Numbered from the stretch's first letter, positions 1-12,046 are shown. The stretch is DNA of 64,000 bases from Candidatus Nomurabacteria bacterium (GCA_020632195.1 JACKGA010000001.1:45673-109672), one strand, 5' to 3'. Numbers and translations: made by a program. Notes: generated by a model from the sequence alone, not told the origin.

Positions 1-316
1 GGCGGTCAGCATGTCGCCGCATCATATACACCCCCAGTGCGTGGAAGGTTTTAATTAAAGGAAATGCATAGGGTTCAGTATCTCCCTGCTGATGAAGCAA
101 GTGTTCAATGCGTTCACGCATCTCGGCAGCAGCCTTGTTCGTAAAGGTCACCGCCAAAATTGATGACGGATCATGGCCTTGCTGTACCAAATAAGCAATA
201 CGGTGAGTCAGTGTCCGTGTCTTGCCTGTCCCCGCACCTGCCACAATCAAAAGCGGCCCATTGATATGCTGGACCGCTTTTTGTTGTTCTTTGTTGAGAG
301 AGGAAATGAGATCCAT
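1..316 (-). CDS. UvrD/PcrA-family DNA helicase, N-terminal fragment (continues beyond the left window edge)
   Basis: Minus-strand translation from the ATG at 316 reads [73 protein letters not shown], the superfamily 1 helicase motif I with Walker A GAGTGKT. It is absent from the ORF track because it runs off the window. Confidence 0.8.
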
Positions 317-402: not shown

Positions 403-822
403 TTAGCCGTCTATTCCTACTGTCACTAGCTCATCATTCTCAAAGTAAATTGTAAGCTGATGTCTGCCCTCGTCTTCCATCATATCGAAGGCTAAGTCCC
501 ACTCGATTGGAGGTTGTTCAAGGTTTAGTATATTTATAGCAACTAAGAGAAATTTTTTACTAAAGTCGTCTATCTTGAAGACCACATTTTCATCCCAATC
601 TTTAATATTTTCTTTAATTAAGTTTGCACTCTTTGCAACCAGATCTTGATAACCTCTCTGTATCTTTATATAGAAGTTTCTCTGTTTGTCCGTGGGTTTT
701 TTCTCAACCGCATCAATAAAATATTCGATATATTTATTCAAAGGTTCAAAAAATACCTCGCCTTCAAAATACTTTATTGCTGAATCCCAGTGTGCTGTCT
801 CTAACATAAGCTCACCAAACAC
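403..822 (-). CDS. hypothetical protein (139 aa)
   Basis: Intact ORF that is co-directional with its neighbours; I recognise no motif. Confidence 0.5.
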   Translation of the reverse strand: MFGELMLETAHWDSAIKYFEGEVFFEPLNKYIEYFIDAVEKKPTDKQRNFYIKIQRGYQDLVAKSANLIKENIKDWDENVVFKIDDFSKKFLLVAINILNLEQPPIEWDLAFDMMEDEGRHQLTIYFENDELVTVGIDG

Positions 823-904
823 ATCGTCTTTCAGGGTTTTCTTTTTGAGCCATCCGAATATAACTTAAATACTAACATAAAAGCGCCTTACGGCGCAGGA
901 GAGG

Positions 905-953
905 TGGATCCAAGATATTTTCTCCGCTTTGCTACGAAAATTCTAGGATGACA
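905..953. repeat. Hairpin repeat copy b (long-loop variant)
   Basis: tggatccaaga-[tattttctccgctttgctacgaaaat]-tctaggatgaca. The flanks TGG ATCC ... GGAT GACA are present and the loop carries the CTCCGCTTTGCTAC motif. The sequence is near-identical to the copy at 12275..12323. Confidence 0.65.
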
Positions 954-979
954 CAGATGAGAGTGTATACGCTTTCTTG

Positions 980-1315
980 CTACTCCATCTCATCCAATTG
1001 TTCCAAAAACAAACGCATTTCGTCGTTCATCAAGTATCCGAAATCAGGATACGTCTCGTCGAGGAAGGCGAGAAATTCTGGTAATGACATACTGTCGAGC
1101 TTTGCATTGAGATCAGCAACCACTGATTCTTCTTGGCTATCCATAAAACGCGCCAAAGCATTCTGGATCACGGTTTCTCCCATCATAGCGATGAGTTCCT
1201 CCTGATCTTCCTCGGGCATGTCTTCAATGTCTAAAACATCTACGAGATCATTTATAACATCAGTAATATTGATTTGTTCATCGAGAGGGTTTATGGGTTC
1301 CATAGGTGTAGTCAT
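980..1315 (-). CDS. hypothetical highly acidic protein (111 aa)
   Basis: Intact ORF very rich in Asp and Glu; no recognisable domain. Confidence 0.5.
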   Translation of the reverse strand: MTTPMEPINPLDEQINITDVINDLVDVLDIEDMPEEDQEELIAMMGETVIQNALARFMDSQEESVVADLNAKLDSMSLPEFLAFLDETYPDFGYLMNDEMRLFLEQLDEME

Positions 1316-1321
1316 TATACT

Positions 1322-1705
1322 CTATTGTCCCTTGCCAAGCATCTGTCCCGTAGCCTGGTCTGCGACGCGTTCGATAAAAGCTGTAATATGCTCTCCGGCA
1401 AAAGGCGTGGCATCGATAGAATTAGCAAGCCGTGCCACCAAATCGCGCAATGTCTGATACGTACCTTGTACCGTTCCCGTCATAAATTCTACAGCATCTC
1501 CTTTGTATTCATTGCCGATCTTTACAGGATCGAGATTCTTGAGGTGACGATACGCAGTATCGGTATACGGGTCCTCCTGCGCAGCAAGTTCAAAAGCGCG
1601 ACGATAGAGTCTTTCCAGAACGAGCTTGGTGGGGTTGGGAGCACTTTGGAGTGTCTGGGTAATCGTTGATGAGTTGACGGTATCCTTCTGAGTATTCATG
1701 GTCAC
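1322..1705 (-). CDS. hypothetical protein (127 aa)
   Basis: Intact ORF, 6 nt upstream of the 980..1315 gene and 32 nt downstream of the 1204-aa gene, consistent with one operon. Confidence 0.5.
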   Translation of the reverse strand: MTMNTQKDTVNSSTITQTLQSAPNPTKLVLERLYRRAFELAAQEDPYTDTAYRHLKNLDPVKIGNEYKGDAVEFMTGTVQGTYQTLRDLVARLANSIDATPFAGEHITAFIERVADQATGQMLGKGQ

Positions 1706-1737
1706 TAGTATATCATGACGATGTACGAAGCTCTAGG

Positions 1738-4700
1738 CTATGATCCGCCAAAAATATCTTTCATGGCTTTCCCGAGATTACGTCCCGCTTGCTGTCCTCC
1801 AGGAATCCTTCGAAAAATATCTTCTGGACCATCTACCATCACGCCTGATTGGTCGGCAACTGGCGTACTTTCACCAGGATTTCCCCCGAAGCTTATTTGG
1901 GTATCTTGAAGGACAGGACCATCTACTCCAATAGTTATGGTTGGTTTAATACTTGCATTCGGATTAGGAATCGTCCTCCCTCCTTTGAAAGTAGTGTTTG
2001 GATTCACATCGGCATGGTTATATGCAGAAGCATCAGGGCTTTTGTAGGTACTATAGCCTTGCCCCGCTTGTGCTACATTCTGGTCACCATAAAATTGCCC
2101 TTGATTATGGAGATATTGTGTCTGATCGAGATGATTGGTTGGCAATGGCCCGCCTGTTTTGATAACCGTTGTGTTGGGAATATTTTGTGGAGTCGCAGCA
2201 TCGAGTTCAGACTGTGGGTAGCGACTCATGTCGCCTTTACTTACGGGGTCTTGGTTAAGCTCGGGGACGCTCTGTGTATGGACACCATCACCCGTACTCC
2301 CTTTAAAATTTGGACCACTTGTATTTTGACCTATCGTCTGTGGCTGATACGTATGCCCCTGCGTAGGTTCTGCGATAGGAATATCGTGATGACTAGATGG
2401 TCCTGGTGTGATATCTACCACTGGTGGATTGGACTGGGGAGGCACTTGTACTTCTGCCACAGGAGGTTGCTGAAATACGGCCTCGTGAGAAACCACAGGA
2501 TCAACATCTACTGGAGTGATAGACTTATGACCAATCACCTCAACTTCAGGGAGCGTTCCGCCATCAATCGTAGCAATAGGAGCGGGACGGTTAAAATCTG
2601 GACGCATGTCGCGCATGTCTGCACGCGAGAGATCAGGTCCTGATGAGGTCAAACTGTGAGCAGTCATACCTCCACCCATAGCCCCCAACATCGTCAGGAT
2701 CAAACGTGCTCGCCAACGACGCACATCTCCACGCTGGATGCGTTCTACTTCTCGCTGGAAGGTAAGGCTATCGATTTCTTTATGAGCGAACTGTTTACTG
2801 AGCTGCTCGATACGACTACGTCCCTCAGCTTTTTGAGCATCCTCTTCAAATTTCATTTTTTTCTGAGTTGCAACGGCAGCTTTGTAATACATATCCTCAT
2901 CAGGATGATAGTCTTTTTCCTTGGTGCGAGCCATATATTCACGATCTTTCAAAGCCCAATCCTGTGCTTTTTGTTTTGCTTTCTGTTGCTGTAAACGAAT
3001 CAATTCCTCGTCATGAAGGTTCATGTTTATTTGGGTGCGTGACTCATTTCCAATGAGATTTTTGATTGATTCATTTTTAGTTACCAAGTTGGCGAAACGA
3101 CTACTTGCGAGACGTCGCGTAATCATGCCGCCAGCAAAGCCACCAAGGTACCCTGGGATATTCAACCCAAACAAAGCTGCGGAAGTCGTATACATCCCCG
3201 CAACCGCAAGCCATGCACCCCCTTGTTTGATCAGACGTGCTTTTTTAGGGTCTTCTTTTTCGAGTTTTGCAAATTTTGCTTGAAGAGTATTCTCGATTTT
3301 GCCATACCAGGTCTCGGCACGCTGTTGACGTAGGGTTTCGCTCCGTACTTCACGCGCAATTCTCTGTTGGTCATAGATAGCGGTAATCCCTACATAACGA
3401 TTTTTGAGTCGTTCGGCTACTTCTTTTTTACGATCTTCGCTCCATCCTTCTTTGTCTTTCAGAAGATGCATGTAGTAATTATTTTTTTCTTGCCCTGCTT
3501 CACGGCGGTATTTTTGATACGCTTCCATGGTTTTGGGAGACATATCTTGCTGTTCGAGCTTGTCGCCTTCCCCACGCCCAAACCAAATACGATTCTTCAA
3601 GCGATGAAAAAAGCCTTGCTGTTGTACTTCTTCTTTGTATTTGGCACGGAAGTCTTCACGTAGTGCTTGCGTACGCTCATGGATATTTTTGTCTTCAAAA
3701 CGCTGTGGCACGGTGAAAGAAATACGTCCTTCTTGAATCAGTCCGCTCAATTCATCATTGATATCAACACGGGTCCGTCTCCCGCCAAAAGAAACCCACA
3801 TGCCATCATCAGACATGGATTCGATTGCGAACTCCTGTCCACGGTAATTCATAACCGGCTTTTCCCCTGCTTTAAATGCATCGCGTACGACAACAGTATC
3901 AGTGGTAGTCAGGTTTTCTGTAACAATCTTTTTGTCTTCAGTAGTTTGAGGCGCTAGTTCTTTTTCTTGCATATCAATTTCTTGTACTTGATTTTCCTCA
4001 AAATGTGGATTCACCGAGCCCACGTGTTCAAGCTTATCTTTCGATATTGCATACGTACGATTACTTCCTGCGGGAGCAACGTTCACAAATCCTTTTTCGA
4101 CATCATCACGATTACCTTCGTAGAGAAGATTCCCCTTTTCGTCTTTAAAAACACGTTGTACGCGTGCAATCTTGTCTGAACCAATAGCATATGTTGGTCC
4201 CGTACCGTCAATAGACTGGACACTCGTATTGCCTTCTTCCATATCATCTCGTGGTACTTCCACCAAGCCGGTATTCTTTTCAAGATGGCGAAAATGCCGA
4301 GGTTCGAGGTTGCTAGAAGGAGAAGGAATGTTTTCTTTTTTATTTTCCACATCTTCTTTGCTCTCGTGTTCTTGTTGGGAGAGATTGCTTCCTATTCCGC
4401 CAAAATCAAGGTCACCTGGTCCAGCCGAGACCCATTCTGGCTGTTCGTAGTCTAGAGGTTGGCTGTCTTCTTGCCCCCCTTCGACAAGACTTTCTTCCTG
4501 AGACAGCGAAGTATTTTCTTTATTTTTCTGTAATTCTTTTTGGATTTTCAACTTGAGCTCCCGCTGGTGCCGTAAGAAATCAGCATCATTATTGATATAG
4601 TTGAGATCTGTTTGAGCAGAATCATACACGGTTTTGGCTGTTGTTTGCTCTTGTGCTTGTGGATGGCTTTCATTCTGATCGGTATTCACACCCAAAGAAG

Positions 4701-5352
4701 CATCATAGAGTGCCCCCATAAGCTTCTGTGCTGCTTGGTCATCAGCTTTTTCTTTTGATTTTTGATATGTTTCATATGCTGACGATGGTACATACTCGGC
4801 GCTTTGCTTTTCAGCATTTTTTTGAGACCATTGCAGACCCTTTTTTGGAAGTGTTCCTGTATAAGATTTATATCCTTTTGGAACTTTGGGCTGCGTATCA
4901 TTCTCTTGTGTCATCTTTTCATTAAATCTCTTCTGAGGAAAATCAGCTGCGAGATTTTCTCCTTGTTGACGAGCAACATAGCCGAGAATAGAGTTCAGAG
5001 AGACTTCGCCCGCGCGAGTCGTTTTGATCCCCGCTTTGTCTTTGAGAAATTGAGTAAGGATTGGTCGATCTTCTTTTGAGAGAATATTTTTAGACTCCAC
5101 AAACTCACGCCACTGACCAAACGTGGGCTTTTGGTGGTATCGCCCATATTGTTCCATGAACTCTTGAAATGCTTTATCAATTTTCTTGAAAGCTTCAGGC
5201 GGGGTTTTGCGATTAGTATCTTTTAATTCTAAATTTGTATTGGTAGATTGCTCTCTATGAGAAGGTTCTGGGTCATCTCCTAAAATAGTAGAAAAAACTT
5301 TTTTAATTTCTTCCTGATTTTTTGAATTGTTTATAGCGTCGCCAAGATTCAT
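1738..5352 (-). CDS. large hypothetical membrane protein (1204 aa, two predicted transmembrane segments, Q/N/T/P-rich, coiled-coil)
   Basis: Uninterrupted 3.6-kb ORF. Hydrophobic segments GGAWLAVAGMYTTSAALFGLNIPGYLGGFAGGMIT and WRARLILTMLGAMGGGMTAHSL. The C-terminal region is Gly/Pro/Asn/Gln-rich and of low complexity. No catalytic motif recognised. Confidence 0.7.
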   Translation of the reverse strand: MNLGDAINNSKNQEEIKKVFSTILGDDPEPSHREQSTNTNLELKDTNRKTPPEAFKKIDKAFQEFMEQYGRYHQKPTFGQWREFVESKNILSKEDRPILTQFLKDKAGIKTTRAGEVSLNSILGYVARQQGENLAADFPQKRFNEKMTQENDTQPKVPKGYKSYTGTLPKKGLQWSQKNAEKQSAEYVPSSAYETYQKSKEKADDQAAQKLMGALYDASLGVNTDQNESHPQAQEQTTAKTVYDSAQTDLNYINNDADFLRHQRELKLKIQKELQKNKENTSLSQEESLVEGGQEDSQPLDYEQPEWVSAGPGDLDFGGIGSNLSQQEHESKEDVENKKENIPSPSSNLEPRHFRHLEKNTGLVEVPRDDMEEGNTSVQSIDGTGPTYAIGSDKIARVQRVFKDEKGNLLYEGNRDDVEKGFVNVAPAGSNRTYAISKDKLEHVGSVNPHFEENQVQEIDMQEKELAPQTTEDKKIVTENLTTTDTVVVRDAFKAGEKPVMNYRGQEFAIESMSDDGMWVSFGGRRTRVDINDELSGLIQEGRISFTVPQRFEDKNIHERTQALREDFRAKYKEEVQQQGFFHRLKNRIWFGRGEGDKLEQQDMSPKTMEAYQKYRREAGQEKNNYYMHLLKDKEGWSEDRKKEVAERLKNRYVGITAIYDQQRIAREVRSETLRQQRAETWYGKIENTLQAKFAKLEKEDPKKARLIKQGGAWLAVAGMYTTSAALFGLNIPGYLGGFAGGMITRRLASSRFANLVTKNESIKNLIGNESRTQINMNLHDEELIRLQQQKAKQKAQDWALKDREYMARTKEKDYHPDEDMYYKAAVATQKKMKFEEDAQKAEGRSRIEQLSKQFAHKEIDSLTFQREVERIQRGDVRRWRARLILTMLGAMGGGMTAHSLTSSGPDLSRADMRDMRPDFNRPAPIATIDGGTLPEVEVIGHKSITPVDVDPVVSHEAVFQQPPVAEVQVPPQSNPPVVDITPGPSSHHDIPIAEPTQGHTYQPQTIGQNTSGPNFKGSTGDGVHTQSVPELNQDPVSKGDMSRYPQSELDAATPQNIPNTTVIKTGGPLPTNHLDQTQYLHNQGQFYGDQNVAQAGQGYSTYKSPDASAYNHADVNPNTTFKGGRTIPNPNASIKPTITIGVDGPVLQDTQISFGGNPGESTPVADQSGVMVDGPEDIFRRIPGGQQAGRNLGKAMKDIFGGS

Positions 5353-5484
5353 ATCAACTATTATACCATAAAACTCCTTACCGGAATATGCTCTGGTGGA
5401 TCTCGTGTACTATTCAGATGTGCTGTCTCTCTTCCCGGCTCTCTGCAGGATCAAAATCTGAAGACATAGGCTGAGATTAGTTGA

Positions 5485-6873
5485 CTAATCAATACCCTGA
5501 TCTCGATATCTTTCAAAAAATTCATCAGTATGAAGAGCGGCGTCAGTCAGCGCTGTAGCAAGTTCTTTTGCGGGGATACGATACGTCTGCTTGGTACGAT
5601 CACTGATAAAAATGATTATTGCATCGTGGTCAGCGGTTGGCTGTTGAATACTCGTAATAATATAAGCGTCAGTATCTCCAGTAATCTTCATCCCTGGGGC
5701 AACCGTACTCTCATCAGTCAAAGCATATGATTCATGTGCAATAGCTTCTGCGCGTGAATGATGATAGTTGTCAATGATCTTCTGCATATCAGCGATATGA
5801 GCACTGCGCTGGCTGACATATTCGGGATAGCGCTCTTTCAAACTCTGGAATTGATTGAAAGCGGAAGTCATAATATTTGAATTTCCCGATGCCACCGCAC
5901 GCGTAAGATACTGCTCCGCAGCATCAAAGTACTTTTTATAGGTCGTCATGCGTTCTTCTCGATGAGCGTTGTGTTCGCGTTCTTCTTTATCAACCATGCT
6001 CTGTGCGGGGGCATACGTCTTGATGACGCCAGGTACATCATAGCGAGATGTGTGAGCAGATCCACCAAATACCGTATCGTAATCTTGTGTCAGTGCTTTA
6101 TCTTGGTCTTCTTCGACCTCTTCTTCTGCCTCACCGAGCTCTCCATTAAGCTGCTCGATGCGTTGGGTGTGAGAAAGATCGTCAAGACGAGGGGTCGTAT
6201 GGGGAATCTCCTTTTCCTGTTCTTCTTTGACAATACGATTAAAACGCTCCCACATATCATCGGCAGGGGTATTTTCTGACGAAGACGGGATGGCTATTTG
6301 GAGGCTTTCAGGAGATGCCTCTTGCTGTTGAGAGAAAGAAGAATGAGCCGCCAGAAGATCATCAAGAGATTGATGAATAGGTGGCGCAGGAGCAGCTTCA
6401 GGTTCCTGTGGGGGCTGAGCATCAGTATCGGCGAGCATCCTCATATCTTGAGAGGGTTCTTGTGGAGGCGCTGTGGGCGGTAGAGGTAGAGGTTTCGTGA
6501 TTGCAGACACGTCAGGAGCGGGAGGAGGAGTTATGAGTGGCTGTGGGGTGGAAGGTGGGGCGGGCGGAGGAGACACGGGAACGGGGGGAAGAGGAGTGCC
6601 CTCTTTCTCTTGTGTATCCTGAGTATGTCTTTCTGATTCTTTGTCTAAAATGTGAGTATCATCTTTCTGTCCCTCAAGCACATGCAAACACTCTTGCTTA
6701 TGTTTTTCATCAATTAAAAGTGAACCGATAATTTGCCGCGCAGTCTCTATCTGCCCCTGTTGCCAGAGTGTAGCTGCAGTATGGAGTGATGTTTCTTCAA
6801 TACTTCCAGGTAAAATACTCTCGGGGTGCTGTTGGATATATTCGCGTATGAGTGAAAGAGGGTCGGTATTCAT
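5485..6873 (-). CDS. hypothetical proline-rich protein (462 aa)
   Basis: Intact ORF with a PPVPVSPPPAPPSTPQPLITPPPAP tract and an acidic linker; no recognised domain. It heads a co-directional gene string. Confidence 0.6.
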   Translation of the reverse strand: MNTDPLSLIREYIQQHPESILPGSIEETSLHTAATLWQQGQIETARQIIGSLLIDEKHKQECLHVLEGQKDDTHILDKESERHTQDTQEKEGTPLPPVPVSPPPAPPSTPQPLITPPPAPDVSAITKPLPLPPTAPPQEPSQDMRMLADTDAQPPQEPEAAPAPPIHQSLDDLLAAHSSFSQQQEASPESLQIAIPSSSENTPADDMWERFNRIVKEEQEKEIPHTTPRLDDLSHTQRIEQLNGELGEAEEEVEEDQDKALTQDYDTVFGGSAHTSRYDVPGVIKTYAPAQSMVDKEEREHNAHREERMTTYKKYFDAAEQYLTRAVASGNSNIMTSAFNQFQSLKERYPEYVSQRSAHIADMQKIIDNYHHSRAEAIAHESYALTDESTVAPGMKITGDTDAYIITSIQQPTADHDAIIIFISDRTKQTYRIPAKELATALTDAALHTDEFFERYRDQGID

Positions 6874-7100
6874 ATGTACTCATTATATCAGAGTACTCCA
6901 GAGAAGGTAGTCTTACGGTATTCTGTATTCAGATAAAATTTGACACTATGTATCAAGTATTGAATAAAAAATGACTCTCTTGACCTCTGTTACATCAATG
7001 CTACCCTTTTAATGTACTGTTTTGGTTCCCACGGAAGAATGAATACATAATCTATGGCATCAGTAAAGCATTATATTATCTCCGTTGCTCCTCGGAACAA

Positions 7101-8347: not shown

Positions 8348-8764
8348 ATGAAAAAAGAAAACGAATTCTCAATCCCCAAAAGATCAGTATGGGCATTGAT
8401 ATGTACTCTTGTACTGGGAGTATTTATATACTTTCAAGCAAAGTATTACATAATTCCTGGGTTTCAGGAAATTTTTAATGAAAAAGACCCCACACTAGAA
8501 GCAGTCATGCGACTGATGTGGGTACCCATACTGGCGTACTGTATGATCTCTGCAGGTCTAGTATCCATCTTTAGTATATTTACGAAACTAAAAAAATATA
8601 AAGAGGAGGGGCTTATTGCTGGGCTTATTGCTGGGCTTATTGCTGGGCTTATTGGCGGGCTTACTTGGGGGCTTATTGGCGGGCTTACTTGGGGGCTTAT
8701 TGGCGGGCTTGTTATTGGGCTTGTTATTGGGCTTATTGCTGGGCTTATTGCTGAAAAAAATTAA
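8348..8764 (+). CDS. small membrane protein with a C-terminal (G-L-x-x)12 glycine-zipper repeat
   Basis: N-terminal transmembrane segments, then GLIAGLIAGLIAGLIGGLTWGLIGGLTWGLIGGLVIGLVIGLIAGLIA, encoded by twelve tandem 12-nt units. Confidence 0.55.
   Translation: MKKENEFSIPKRSVWALICTLVLGVFIYFQAKYYIIPGFQEIFNEKDPTLEAVMRLMWVPILAYCMISAGLVSIFSIFTKLKKYKEEGLIAGLIAGLIAGLIGGLTWGLIGGLTWGLIGGLVIGLVIGLIAGLIAEKN
8609..8752 (+). repeat. 12 x 12-nt in-frame tandem repeat (gggcttattgct and variants)
   Basis: Direct reading of the sequence: the units are gggcttattgct x3, gggcttattggc, gggcttacttgg, gggcttattggc, gggcttacttgg, gggcttattggc, gggcttgttatt x2 and gggcttattgct x2. Confidence 0.9.
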
Positions 8765-9997: not shown

Positions 9998-10012
9998 AGA
10001 TTTGTGTATAAT
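9998..10012 (+). promoter_or_regulatory. candidate extended -10 promoter element (TGTGTATAAT)
   Basis: tttgtgtataatg lies about 50 nt upstream of the 10063 ORF. Confidence 0.3.
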
Positions 10013-10062
10013 GAATGCGTAACAGTCGAGTTGCGTATATATGAGTGTTATAGAAAATAATT

Positions 10063-10419
10063 ATGGAAAAGTTGAAACCCAAAGCATACATTTTAGATTG
10101 GACAGTTAATGATTATTCAAGTCTGCTTGAGATACTAACTGAACAAGCTATTGATTTTGATATTGAACAGGGGACAAGGAATCTTATTGTTAACATCCCA
10201 TTTACCCAGCTTGATCTTTTTTCTCGTATAATACAACAACAATTAAATAGTCCTGTTAATTATGTGGATATTCAATATCCTGAAATGAAACTAACCGTTA
10301 TCATATTTAAAAGTGAAGTATTTAAAATTAAAACTGAAGAACAAAACAAGGAAATTAAGAAATGGGCTATAAATAATGGACTTCCAGTCCAACAAGCAGA
10401 CTGGGGAGTATCTTTTTAA
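10063..10419 (+). CDS. hypothetical protein (118 aa), low-GC
   Basis: Intact ORF that is markedly AT-richer than the flanking tig and clpP genes. Confidence 0.5.
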   Translation: MEKLKPKAYILDWTVNDYSSLLEILTEQAIDFDIEQGTRNLIVNIPFTQLDLFSRIIQQQLNSPVNYVDIQYPEMKLTVIIFKSEVFKIKTEEQNKEIKKWAINNGLPVQQADWGVSF

Positions 10420-10567
10420 GAACCATAATTACATCCTATAACAGACAATATATGCTCCGCTTCGCTACGGTCTTCGACAAATCTATCACTGCGTGATAGA
10501 CTTCATATATCGTCGGAACGTTGTCGGAAATGATTTTTACCCCTTTTTAATTATTCACGTTTTCAAA

Positions 10568-11095
10568 ATGAGCAACAAAAATTCTATAGATCAAATTAAT
10601 GTTTGTATTCCAGTTGTTTCTGCAATTGTAGAAAGAATTAGAAATGGAGAAAAAGAAATTTTAATCCAAACAAGATGGAAACCAGAAAGAGATCCAGAGT
10701 ATTCAGGAACTATAGAAATACCTGCTGGCTGGATAGATCGTTATGAAAATGTTTACGATGCTTTAAGAAGAGAGGTTTTAGAAGAAACTGGTTTGAAAGT
10801 TACGAAGATAAAACCTGAAACTAAAACAAAACTATATTCTCCAAAAAATGATTTAAATTTTGCTTTTGTTCCTTTTTGCTGTCAACAACAATTGAAAGGT
10901 GGCAAACCTTGGGTTGGTTTTGTTTTTGTATGTGAAGTTGAAGATAAAGAACCAAAGCATCAAGAAGAAGAAACAAGAGATGTTCGTTGGATTAAAATTT
11001 CGGAATTTAAGAAAATATTTGCAGAAACCCCAGAAAAAATATTCACATTACAGCTCGGAGTATTAGAGTATTATTTTGAAAATCACGAGGGGTAA
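10568..11095 (+). CDS. NUDIX hydrolase
   Basis: Nudix box GWIDRYENVYDALRREVLEETGL, which fits G-x5-E-x7-REVxEExG. The start is taken at the internal ATG (MSNKNSIDQ). Confidence 0.75.
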   Translation: MSNKNSIDQINVCIPVVSAIVERIRNGEKEILIQTRWKPERDPEYSGTIEIPAGWIDRYENVYDALRREVLEETGLKVTKIKPETKTKLYSPKNDLNFAFVPFCCQQQLKGGKPWVGFVFVCEVEDKEPKHQEEETRDVRWIKISEFKKIFAETPEKIFTLQLGVLEYYFENHEG

Positions 11096-11389
11096 AAATC
11101 ACTCTCCGCTATCGCTCCTGCCTAAAGGCTCCGACAACAGCTGATATCCGTTCGCTACGCACATCCCGACCATATTGAATTAAATTTTAGTGGAATGGTC
11201 GGGACGTCAGATATCAGCGGACGTTATGTGTAACCATTTTTTTAACAATTTAATGATTTGCAGAGAGATTTTTAAATAAGGAATGAAATTTAATTTTTTT
11301 CTTTATAATAATGAGGGGAATAAAAGGAATTTCTCCGCTATTGCTCCGAAATGAATATATTTATAAATTTTTAATTATTATTAAATATT

Positions 11390-12046
11390 ATGAAACTACT
11401 TTTAACATCACAAGGATTTTCTAATGATTCAATTGTGAATGCTTTTATTGATTTAGTTGGGAAAAAACCGGAAGATACTCACTTGGTTTATGTTCCAACA
11501 TCAATTCATGGAGCTAGAGGTGATAAAAAATGGTTTGTGAGAAATATATCAAATGTTGCAAAATTAAATTTTAAAAAATTTGAGATAATCGATATTGCAG
11601 TTGTTGAAAAAGAAGTTTGGAAATCTAGTTTTGAAAATGCAGATGTGTTGTACTTTGAAGGTGGAAATGCGCAATTTCTTTTACAATGGCTAGAAAATAC
11701 AGGACTAGATAAAGAATTAGCCAAAATAATTGAGAATAAGGTTTATGTTGGTTCAAGTGCTGGATGTATTGTTTTAAGTAAAACTATTTGGGCTGCTTCA
11801 AACTATATTTTAGATTCAGAAATTAAAGATGTTCCAAAAGGATTGGGATTAGTTGATTTTTATTTTAGACCTCATTTTAATTCGGAAGATAAAGCAACTA
11901 TAAATAAAGATTCTCTTTCAGAAGTTTCTAAAAAGAATCTAAAAGAAATGATTTATACAATGGATGATAACTCAGCTTTAAAAGTTATAGATGATAAAAT
12001 CGAAGTAATCAGTGAAGGTGATTGGCTTGTTCTGAATGAGAAATAA
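11390..12046 (+). CDS. peptidase S51 (dipeptidase E-like) family protein
   Basis: YFEGGNAQFLLQWLENTGL ... VYVGSSAGCIV resembles the PepE/cyanophycinase class I amidotransferase-like fold with its Ser nucleophile in a G-S-S-A-G context. Confidence 0.6.
   Translation: MKLLLTSQGFSNDSIVNAFIDLVGKKPEDTHLVYVPTSIHGARGDKKWFVRNISNVAKLNFKKFEIIDIAVVEKEVWKSSFENADVLYFEGGNAQFLLQWLENTGLDKELAKIIENKVYVGSSAGCIVLSKTIWAASNYILDSEIKDVPKGLGLVDFYFRPHFNSEDKATINKDSLSEVSKKNLKEMIYTMDDNSALKVIDDKIEVISEGDWLVLNEK

Follow-up and report, generated by a model that had tools for sequence, protein, structure and literature searches.

A lineage-restricted four-gene cluster of Candidatus Nomurabacteria centred on a 1204-residue protein, with a possible role at the membrane

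Whether a string of adjacent genes that are all annotated as hypothetical proteins makes up one system, and where such a system would begin and end, is the question raised by a locus of Candidatus Nomurabacteria, which belongs to the candidate phyla radiation (CPR). The locus lies in a 64,000-nucleotide (nt) window of a metagenome-assembled genome (MAG); the window means this whole stretch of DNA, and all positions are counted on it. Five open reading frames (ORFs) on the minus strand, which correspond to H6776_00240 to 00260 of NCBI and are each labelled hypothetical protein there, were analyzed, and four of them were found to form a conserved cluster around a protein of 1204 amino acids (aa), hereafter the giant. 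From the upstream end, the five ORFs are:

5485..6873, minus strand: g462 (H6776_00260), 462 aa, acidic and soluble
1738..5352, minus strand: giant (H6776_00255), 1204 aa, centre of the cluster
1322..1705, minus strand: g127 (H6776_00250), 127 aa; likely start at ATG 1699, giving 125 aa
980..1315, minus strand: g111 (H6776_00245), 111 aa, very acidic
403..822, minus strand: g139 (H6776_00240), 139 aa; likely start at ATG 807, giving 134 aa

All five ORFs were found where the preliminary description of this DNA had placed them, and the first three gaps, put there at 6 to 132 nt, agreed as well: from g462 to g139 the intergenic gaps measure 132, 32, 6, and 157 nt. The internal ATG starts of g127 and g139 are those used in the NCBI and Logan gene calls, the giant is sequence-identical to H6776_00255 of Candidatus Nomurabacteria bacterium, and the contig carrying H6776_00240, 00245, 00250, 00255, and 00260 is 146.6 kb long. 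The compositions claimed earlier were likewise recovered, g462 being Pro-rich (27.8% Pro across residues 93–200) and g111 extremely acidic (30 Asp/Glu vs. 3 Lys/Arg, isoelectric point 4.05).

Related loci were reached via the database relatives of the giant (P0002 and P0003) and via relatives of g127, and a metagenome scan added two. Together with the window they make seven distinct loci (the window, L002, L003, L004, L005, L006, which equals L007–L009, and L010), which were compared by BLASTP over all their ORFs; homologues of g462 and g111 come via these loci, and the large protein databases were searched with the giant and g127. The order g462-like gene, giant, g127-like gene, g111-like gene recurred across the loci, with L010 as an exception on the upstream side. 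The triad of giant, g127, and g111 was present in all seven distinct loci at a spacing of 6–60 nt, and g462 in five of the six loci with a readable upstream side, L010 being the sixth. The six other distinct loci encode giant homologues of 1017–1319 aa, and identity to the window giant was 35–39% in the aligned part. Identities to the other window proteins were 46–56% for the C-terminal half of g462 (L002, L003, L004, and L006), 64–66% in L002–L006 and 48% in L010 for g127, and 55–68% in L002–L006 and 31% in L010 for g111. L010 is much more distant, its 1319-aa giant being recognizable only over window residues ~557–904 (~350 residues), and even there the giant, g127, and g111 follow directly upon one another in the usual order.

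To scale these divergences, one neighbouring gene was used:

1..316, minus strand: first 105 codons of the UvrD/PcrA-type helicase gene (uvrD), the divergence yardstick

Between the window, L003, L004, L005, and L006, the N-terminal half of UvrD showed 79–82.5% identity, which marks the clade as shallow. All four cluster proteins diverge faster than UvrD, the giant by far the fastest and g127 the slowest; the fast evolution of the giant would fit a surface-exposed or partner-interaction role. The proportion of nonsynonymous differences (pN) was far below that of synonymous differences (pS) in all four genes: 0.25–0.36 vs. 0.63–0.83 for g462, 0.24–0.45 vs. about 0.7 for the giant (0.24 vs. 0.73 between L002 and L003, for example), 0.055 vs. 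0.61 for g127 between L002 and L003, and about 0.14–0.25 vs. about 0.62–0.84 for g111 among the close loci. With pS at 0.6–0.85 the synonymous sites are saturated, hence pN vs. pS is given and not dN/dS proper. As pN is far below pS, the four genes are genuine protein-coding genes under purifying selection. Co-directional ORFs by themselves are ordinary; the order kept in seven loci, together with the low pN, indicated that this cluster is real and beyond chance.

The boundaries of the cluster were defined by its flanks. Upstream lie, in divergent orientation, the genes of a LysM-LysM-M23 peptidase, trigger factor (tig), and ClpP; downstream, beyond the window's left end, lies the UvrD/PcrA-type helicase gene, with rsmA also on that side. 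The same site recurs elsewhere, with the clpP, tig, and LysM-M23 side seen in the window and in L006, and uvrD and rsmA on the other side. Within this frame the neighbouring positions change. In L006, an 811-aa protein (3050..5485, plus strand) that carries DUF285, PG_binding_1, and a faint cadherin signal is inserted between the LysM-M23 gene and the cluster, and the window has no such gene. The slot between g111 and uvrD is filled differently from locus to locus, with GIY-YIG, DUF218, and a 215-aa exported protein in L003, the 215-aa gene alone in L005 and L006, and two membrane ORFs in L004. The chief reason to regard the cluster as a functional unit is that it has stayed intact between two changing flanks.

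This slot also settles the place of the fifth gene. The preliminary description had taken the string to be five genes long, and in this it went too far, as no homologue of g139 was found among all ORFs of any related locus and the gene stands beyond a terminator-like hairpin; the unit comprises four genes, with g139 as a neighbour that lies outside the conserved cluster, in a slot of changing content. The g139 protein, which among the compared loci occurs in the window genome only, is acidic and has no Pfam or NCBIfam family; sub-threshold matches to HamB of PADLOC (E 0.0023, 14 bits) and to a PHROG of unknown function (E 0.014) were weak, and tblastn returned nothing for g139 in 50,697 phage records.

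Candidate transcription signals were called as consensus scans and matches, by which functional status is not implied. Three of them bear on the cluster:

6882..6887, minus strand: −10 box TATAAT, which starts 14 nt and ends 8 nt upstream of the g462 ATG
5360..5365, minus strand: extended −10 box TGGTATAAT, which starts 13 nt and ends 7 nt upstream of the giant's ATG
883..896, minus strand: terminator-like hairpin GCGCC GTAA GGCGC followed by TTTTAT, 84 nt past the g111 stop codon

An equivalent TGCTATAAT stands upstream of the g462 homologue in L006, and in each of the seven loci a TGnTATAAT or TATACT box was present 7–11 nt before the giant's ATG; boxes of this type also precede g462 in the window and L006, and g127 in L002–L004. 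Across the window, 7 of 48 large ORFs carry such a box at −10 to −20, where ~0.8 would be expected. This pattern suggests that leaderless-type transcription starts are frequent in the lineage and that the cluster contains internal promoters; for that reason, operon would here mean a co-directional cluster and not necessarily one mRNA. The hairpin at 883..896 is the probable end of the transcription unit, and in L006 a 15-bp palindromic hairpin lies directly 3′ of the g111 homologue.

No family could be assigned to the cluster. Nothing significant was found in Pfam, NCBIfam, and PHROGs for any of the five proteins, in agreement with the earlier remark that no known motif was recognizable in them, and the giant had no PHROGs or Pfam match at E ≤ 1. 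Pfam also returned nothing significant for the six homologous giants and for extra ORFs, and no match for any of the seven g111 members; the sub-threshold hints were TPR_4 (E 0.24) at the N-terminus of g462 and HrpJ (E 0.015) in a single g111 homologue from outside the window. Sequence-profile searches of the PDB with whole-family and per-domain alignments, those of the giant's N-domain, beta, and helical domains included, gave nothing significant. None of the PADLOC defence models matched g462, the giant, or g127, and g111 had a weak match only (PDC-M62A, E 0.0095, 12.9 bits).

Relatives were also rare in the largest collections. An exhaustive hmmsearch of 1.84 billion cluster representatives with a profile of giant residues 1–910 returned three proteins, all of its own family, and the g127 profile returned ten clusters among 5.8 billion; a word-indexed search brought up 2 relatives for the giant and 9 for g127. 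Two pattern-dependent scans of 185,579 GTDB species representatives, a collection that apparently does not hold the source MAG, found nothing. IMG/VR contained no relatives of g127, the giant, or g462 by three family profiles, and tblastn with the giant core and the C-terminal half of g462 found nothing among 50,697 records of phages or 72,556 of plasmids. A literature search found no description of this cluster. As judged from these searches, the cluster is without known family, in the sense of an absence of detectable relatives and not of a demonstrated mechanism; it is lineage-restricted and vertically inherited within a narrow clade of ultra-small Nomurabacteria. Two outcomes had been named beforehand as counting against an uncharacterized multi-protein system, namely that the proteins fall into known families or that the genes lack synteny elsewhere. 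What was found is synteny for four of the five genes and no match to a known family, both of which support the idea of such a system.

A domain map of the giant was established from the alignment of the seven sequences and an AlphaFold model of residues 1–910. The model was built on a 3-sequence alignment and has a mean predicted local distance difference test score (pLDDT) of 49 and a predicted template modelling score (pTM) of 0.25; its domain islands match the conserved blocks of the alignment. All coordinates are on the minus strand:

residues 1–5: conserved MNLGD start, from the alignment
residues 50–135, 4948..5205: small helical N-domain with the motifs PTFGQWREFVE and ILGYVAR
residues 136–345: variable Q/E/K-rich linker
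residues 345–556, 3685..4320: beta-rich modules, mostly strands, pLDDT 55–81
residues 557–705, 3238..3684: helical bundle of four long helices, pLDDT 60–80
residues 711–745, 3118..3222: hydrophobic segment 1, Gly/Ala-rich, about 30–37 aa
residues ~775–880: NLH.EELI motif, then a helical (coiled-coil) stretch of variable length, low confidence
residues ~872–881: Arg-rich motif I.RGDVRR.R, conserved in all seven homologues
residues 884–902, 2647..2703: hydrophobic segment 2, Kyte-Doolittle value 1.12
residues 906–1204, 1741..2637: low-complexity tail, rich in P/G/Q/T, whose end region carries short conserved motifs

The N-domain (pLDDT about 67–83) consists of four helices and short strands and is conserved in five of the seven homologues, being absent or divergent in L004 and L010. 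Residues 345–556 contain two TYAI..DK..V repeats, an internal duplication, followed by a beta module centred on VMNYRGQEF...ISFTV. The helical bundle, with the motifs GRGEGD.LEQ..MS..T and GW...RK.EVA.RL, is the most widely conserved part, holding the majority of the invariant columns over the seven homologues and being common to L010 and P0014. The conserved tail motifs are GPKI.G..G.GTYTQ, NPNAK.GPG, GNGKNIPT, and GP.D. Low complexity and coiled coil, both ascribed to the giant at first sight, were thus present, as Q/E/K-rich and P/G/T/Q-rich stretches and as long helices.

When the model was compared with the PDB by Foldseek, no match had an E below 1e-3, all being at E ≥ 4.5e-3. The best weak matches fell on residues 345–556 and were to tandem Tudor, Agenet, KOW, and SH3-like proteins: 9a7d_A (E 4.5e-3), 4qw2_A (E 2.3e-2, probability 0.96), and several Spt5 chains, so that a YrvJ model, Spt5 KOW repeats, and the tandem Tudor domains of FMRP/FXR (probability 0.96) are among them. 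TM-scores against these small-barrel proteins were very low because the model is multi-domain and of low confidence.

Two side observations concern the giant gene. In L004, where the giant is without the PTFGQW N-domain, an extra 327-aa ORF (896..1879, plus strand) lies between the g462 homologue and the giant and ends in the loosely similar KTFTDFLSEQE...LRKFLTQ; judged from this ORF, the L004 N-domain may have been split off or replaced. In the window, the giant gene contains many short antisense ORFs and a longer one of 264 aa at 1849..2643 (plus strand); the latter is probably no gene but a consequence of the codon composition of the giant.

The preliminary description had called the giant a two-transmembrane protein with two glycine-rich hydrophobic segments about 230 residues apart. 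Both segments exist and are Gly/Ala-rich; their spacing is ~140 residues from edge to edge and ~165 from centre to centre, not ~230, and two membrane spans are not established, because segment 2 is weak and short and contains Arg in homologues. Segment 1 has a Kyte-Doolittle value of 1.25 in the window and 1.6–1.9 in homologues and is interrupted mid-way by NIPG, or by Arg in L002, L003, L005, and L006. Segment 2 falls below 1.0 in most close homologues (L002–L006), measures only 13–15 aa in L002, L003, L005, and L006, and has an Arg inside it in three of these.

The charges beside the two segments were more uniform. Before segment 1 there are 5–7 Lys/Arg and after it 3–5, with almost no acidic residues, so that both flanks are net positive in all seven homologues; segment 2 has an upstream flank of +5 to +8 (5–8 Lys/Arg) and a neutral or acidic downstream flank, again in all seven. 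Topology was read from hydropathy and charge counts alone. By the positive-inside rule these conserved charges favour an N-terminus inside, segment 1 not as a span but as a hairpin that turns back to the cytoplasm, and segment 2 crossing in N-in/C-out orientation with the tail outside the cell; both assignments are predictions from sequence. No signal peptide precedes the first ~700 residues of the giant, which are probably cytoplasmic, and the part that could be extracellular is limited to about 300 residues of low complexity. It had also been suggested that this layout fits a membrane-spanning scaffold or an envelope-spanning adhesin; no adhesin-type domain was found in the giant, and the data neither establish nor exclude either identity.

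The three smaller cluster proteins differ from the giant in having no hydrophobic segment and no signal peptide, and for this reason g462, g127, and g111 should be cytoplasmic. The map of g462, again on the minus strand, is:

6664..6873: N-terminal helical region, ~70 aa, conserved in the window and L006
6274..6597: Pro-rich variable linker, residues 93–200
5485..6261: conserved C-terminal region, ~260 aa, in L002, L003, L004, and L006

The most conserved cluster member, g127, is a soluble alpha-helical protein whose invariant motifs include YKGDAVEF and PF.GEHI..FIERV. Its AlphaFold model (pLDDT 81, pTM 0.74) has six helices and one beta hairpin and found no Foldseek match in the PDB (best E 0.8) or in BFVD (best E 0.83). 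Ribosomal protein uS7, likewise helical with one beta hairpin, made up 7 of the top 11 PDB matches of g127 and was rejected as a chance resemblance (E >1, root-mean-square deviation ~14–18 Å). The conserved motif of g111 is MPEE..EELI.MMGETV.QN.LARF. The DUF5663 family, a small acidic CPR family considered as a possible relative of g111, was also rejected, as none of the seven g111 members matched it even at E ≤ 10. Profile-profile comparison by hhalign detected no relationship between g462 and the giant or between g127 and g111, and none of the cluster proteins has a paralogue within the window.

We tentatively propose, as a reading that we hold possible and a little short of even, that g462, the giant, g127, and g111 encode one membrane-associated complex, in which the giant is a scaffold with three soluble cytoplasmic partners. 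The first ~700 residues of the giant would stay in the cytoplasm and comprise the small helical domain, beta-barrel-like modules, possibly of Tudor/KOW/SH3 type, and the conserved helical bundle. The Gly/Ala-rich hairpin 711–745 would dip into the membrane from the cytoplasmic face, followed by the coiled-coil stretch, and the weaker segment 884–902, after the Arg-rich motif, would bring the polypeptide through the membrane. The Pro/Gly/Thr/Gln-rich tail of ~300 residues would be exposed in or beyond the cell wall, and the three soluble acidic proteins would bind the cytoplasmic modules of the giant. From the conserved charges and the hydropathy we infer the membrane topology, and a role of the cluster at the envelope is likewise putative; the fast-evolving low-complexity tail probably faces the envelope.

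Several points weigh against this proposal. Since the genomes behind most of the loci are close relatives, a degree of synteny would be expected even if no functional link existed, and in L010, the most divergent locus, the upstream gene is not g462-like. The −10 boxes at g462, the giant, and sometimes g127 suggest separate promoters, not one polycistronic mRNA. Segment 2 is, by its length and hydropathy, too short and too weakly hydrophobic in most of L002–L006 for a confident membrane span, and because of this weakness the giant may be wholly cytoplasmic and membrane-peripheral. AlphaFold confidence was <50 at both hydrophobic segments and at the coiled coil, the alignment having only 3 sequences, and the Tudor/KOW/SH3 resemblance of the model is suggestive and not statistically significant. 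The physical association of the four proteins is, further, something that we infer.

The same observations lend themselves to a simpler explanation, in which there is no joint system and four lineage-specific genes of separate function are adjacent only through the close kinship of the genomes. The shallow clade seen with UvrD in the window, L003, L004, L005, and L006 would suit it, as would the own −10 box before the ATG of g462, the giant, and often g127, and neither an interaction nor a shared domain was detected between the families. Kinship by itself fits poorly with the neighbouring slots, which are rearranged on both sides with the cluster intact, with the divergent L010, which still keeps the giant, g127, and g111 adjacent and ordered, and with the consistently tight spacing of this triad (6–60 nt). 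We consider separate genes unlikely, yet they are the alternative that survives best.

The membrane segments admit a different assignment of the giant, as an exported translocator or pore-former for a host membrane, with g111, g127, and perhaps g462 as acidic chaperones that would keep its hydrophobic segments soluble in the cytoplasm, in a type III-like arrangement. Two glycine-zipper-like segments with coiled coil on their flanks, small acidic helical proteins encoded next door, the lack of a signal peptide, and the fast evolution of the giant all have a place in it, and CPR bacteria are generally regarded as episymbionts. Neither a secretion ATPase nor an apparatus gene was found in or beside any locus, however, a result that covers the loci and not the whole genome; no translocator, chaperone, or WXG100 family matched, TPR_4 and HrpJ being far below threshold at the E values given above, and the conserved positive-inside charges suit a resident membrane protein. 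With WXG100 and type III pairs the cluster shares two tandem acidic, largely helical proteins (~100–125 aa) beside a large protein with hydrophobic segments and coiled coil, but g127 and g111 have no Pfam WXG100 match, and the g127 model shows six helices and a beta hairpin instead of a two-helix hairpin. Unlike a type VII secretion system, the loci have no FtsK/SpoIIIE-type (EssC/EccC) ATPase among their called genes, including 20 kb of L006. A translocator is accordingly quite improbable.

A bolder form of the proposed complex deserves mention beside it, namely that the cluster encodes a new envelope apparatus of an episymbiotic CPR bacterium, which makes contact with the host or targets its membrane and is unrelated to pili, type IV, or type VII secretion. 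The giant would then sit in the symbiont membrane, or in the host membrane via its glycine-zipper segments, the fast-evolving low-complexity tail would be presented to the host surface, and the three cytoplasmic partners would assemble it, chaperone it, or signal through the Tudor/SH3-like modules. We regard this as speculative and quite a long shot.

The upstream neighbour offers a third alternative, an envelope or cell-wall remodelling module formed with the divergent LysM-M23 peptidase, in which the coiled coil and anchor of the giant would position or regulate the hydrolase. The LysM-M23 gene is directly upstream and divergent in the window and upstream in L006 too, where the protein between the two carries PG_binding_1 and DUF285. 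Only two loci show this adjacency, however, and in one of these it is interrupted; the M23 gene is part of the housekeeping block that also contains tig and clpP, and nothing else links it to the cluster. Further, the peptidase keeps intact HxxxD and HxH motifs and has no coiled-coil regulator-type domain. We therefore think such a module very unlikely.

That the cluster is a degraded prophage or mobile-element remnant, with the giant as a tail tape-measure protein and the small acidic proteins as assembly chaperones, is the most improbable of all, since the likeness goes no deeper than the general architecture (coiled coil and Gly/Ala-rich hydrophobic segments in a very long protein, with small acidic neighbours), whereas the PHROGs, IMG/VR, and phage and plasmid record searches were negative, BFVD held no structural match to g127, the small genes come after the giant and not before it, and the cluster stands outside any tail module, at one housekeeping site shared by several species, where further phage genes, an integrase, and a flanking tRNA are all lacking; a phage or plasmid origin was thus rejected on context and on uniformly negative viral searches.

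Some further features of the neighbourhood were recorded. Two tRNAs were found in the whole window, which otherwise had no Rfam match. Between the trigger factor and clpP genes lies a low-GC island (10001..12000, GC 0.31 vs. about 0.41 elsewhere) with a 118-aa unknown ORF, a NUDIX hydrolase gene, and a peptidase S51 gene; it looks like an insertion, because tig and clpP directly adjoin in L006. A 138-aa membrane protein is encoded at 8348..8764 (plus strand), and its C-terminal half derives from a tandem repeat (8609..8753) of about 12 copies of the 12-nt GGGCTTATTGCT, which codes for GLIA/GLIG glycine-zipper units.

Among known systems, the proposed layout of the giant comes close to that of RodZ, which has a cytoplasmic helical/helix-turn-helix (HTH) domain, a membrane anchor, and a Pro/Thr-rich extracytoplasmic region. 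The giant would similarly have a cytoplasmic helical N-domain without signal peptide, a basic juxtamembrane stretch, an anchor, and a Pro/Thr/Gln-rich C-terminal region. It differs from RodZ, however, in having no HTH-family or DUF4115 match in Pfam and NCBIfam and no PDB match for the N-domain profile, in being ~4x larger, in possessing additional beta modules as well as a helical bundle and another hydrophobic segment, and in occurring in one small clade only, with three dedicated partner genes. For residues 345–556, tandem Tudor/Agenet/KOW/SH3 proteins such as FMRP, Spt5, and YrvJ provide the best though weak structural likeness, which was unsupported by the Pfam and PDB sequence searches.

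In CPR genomes, lineage-restricted orphan operons are common, as are orphan clusters of this kind that include large membrane-associated proteins. The CPR, or Patescibacteria, account for a large share of bacterial diversity, and little is known of their envelope construction or of their contact with hosts. In place of five hypothetical proteins, the locus now presents a four-gene unit with mapped boundaries, a domain map of the giant, and, in g127, a confident model unmatched by Foldseek in the PDB or BFVD, all of which make the unit testable. Should the four proteins associate into a membrane complex, that complex would be an invention of this lineage, with no ancestry that can be detected, and would be useful for studying envelope innovation.

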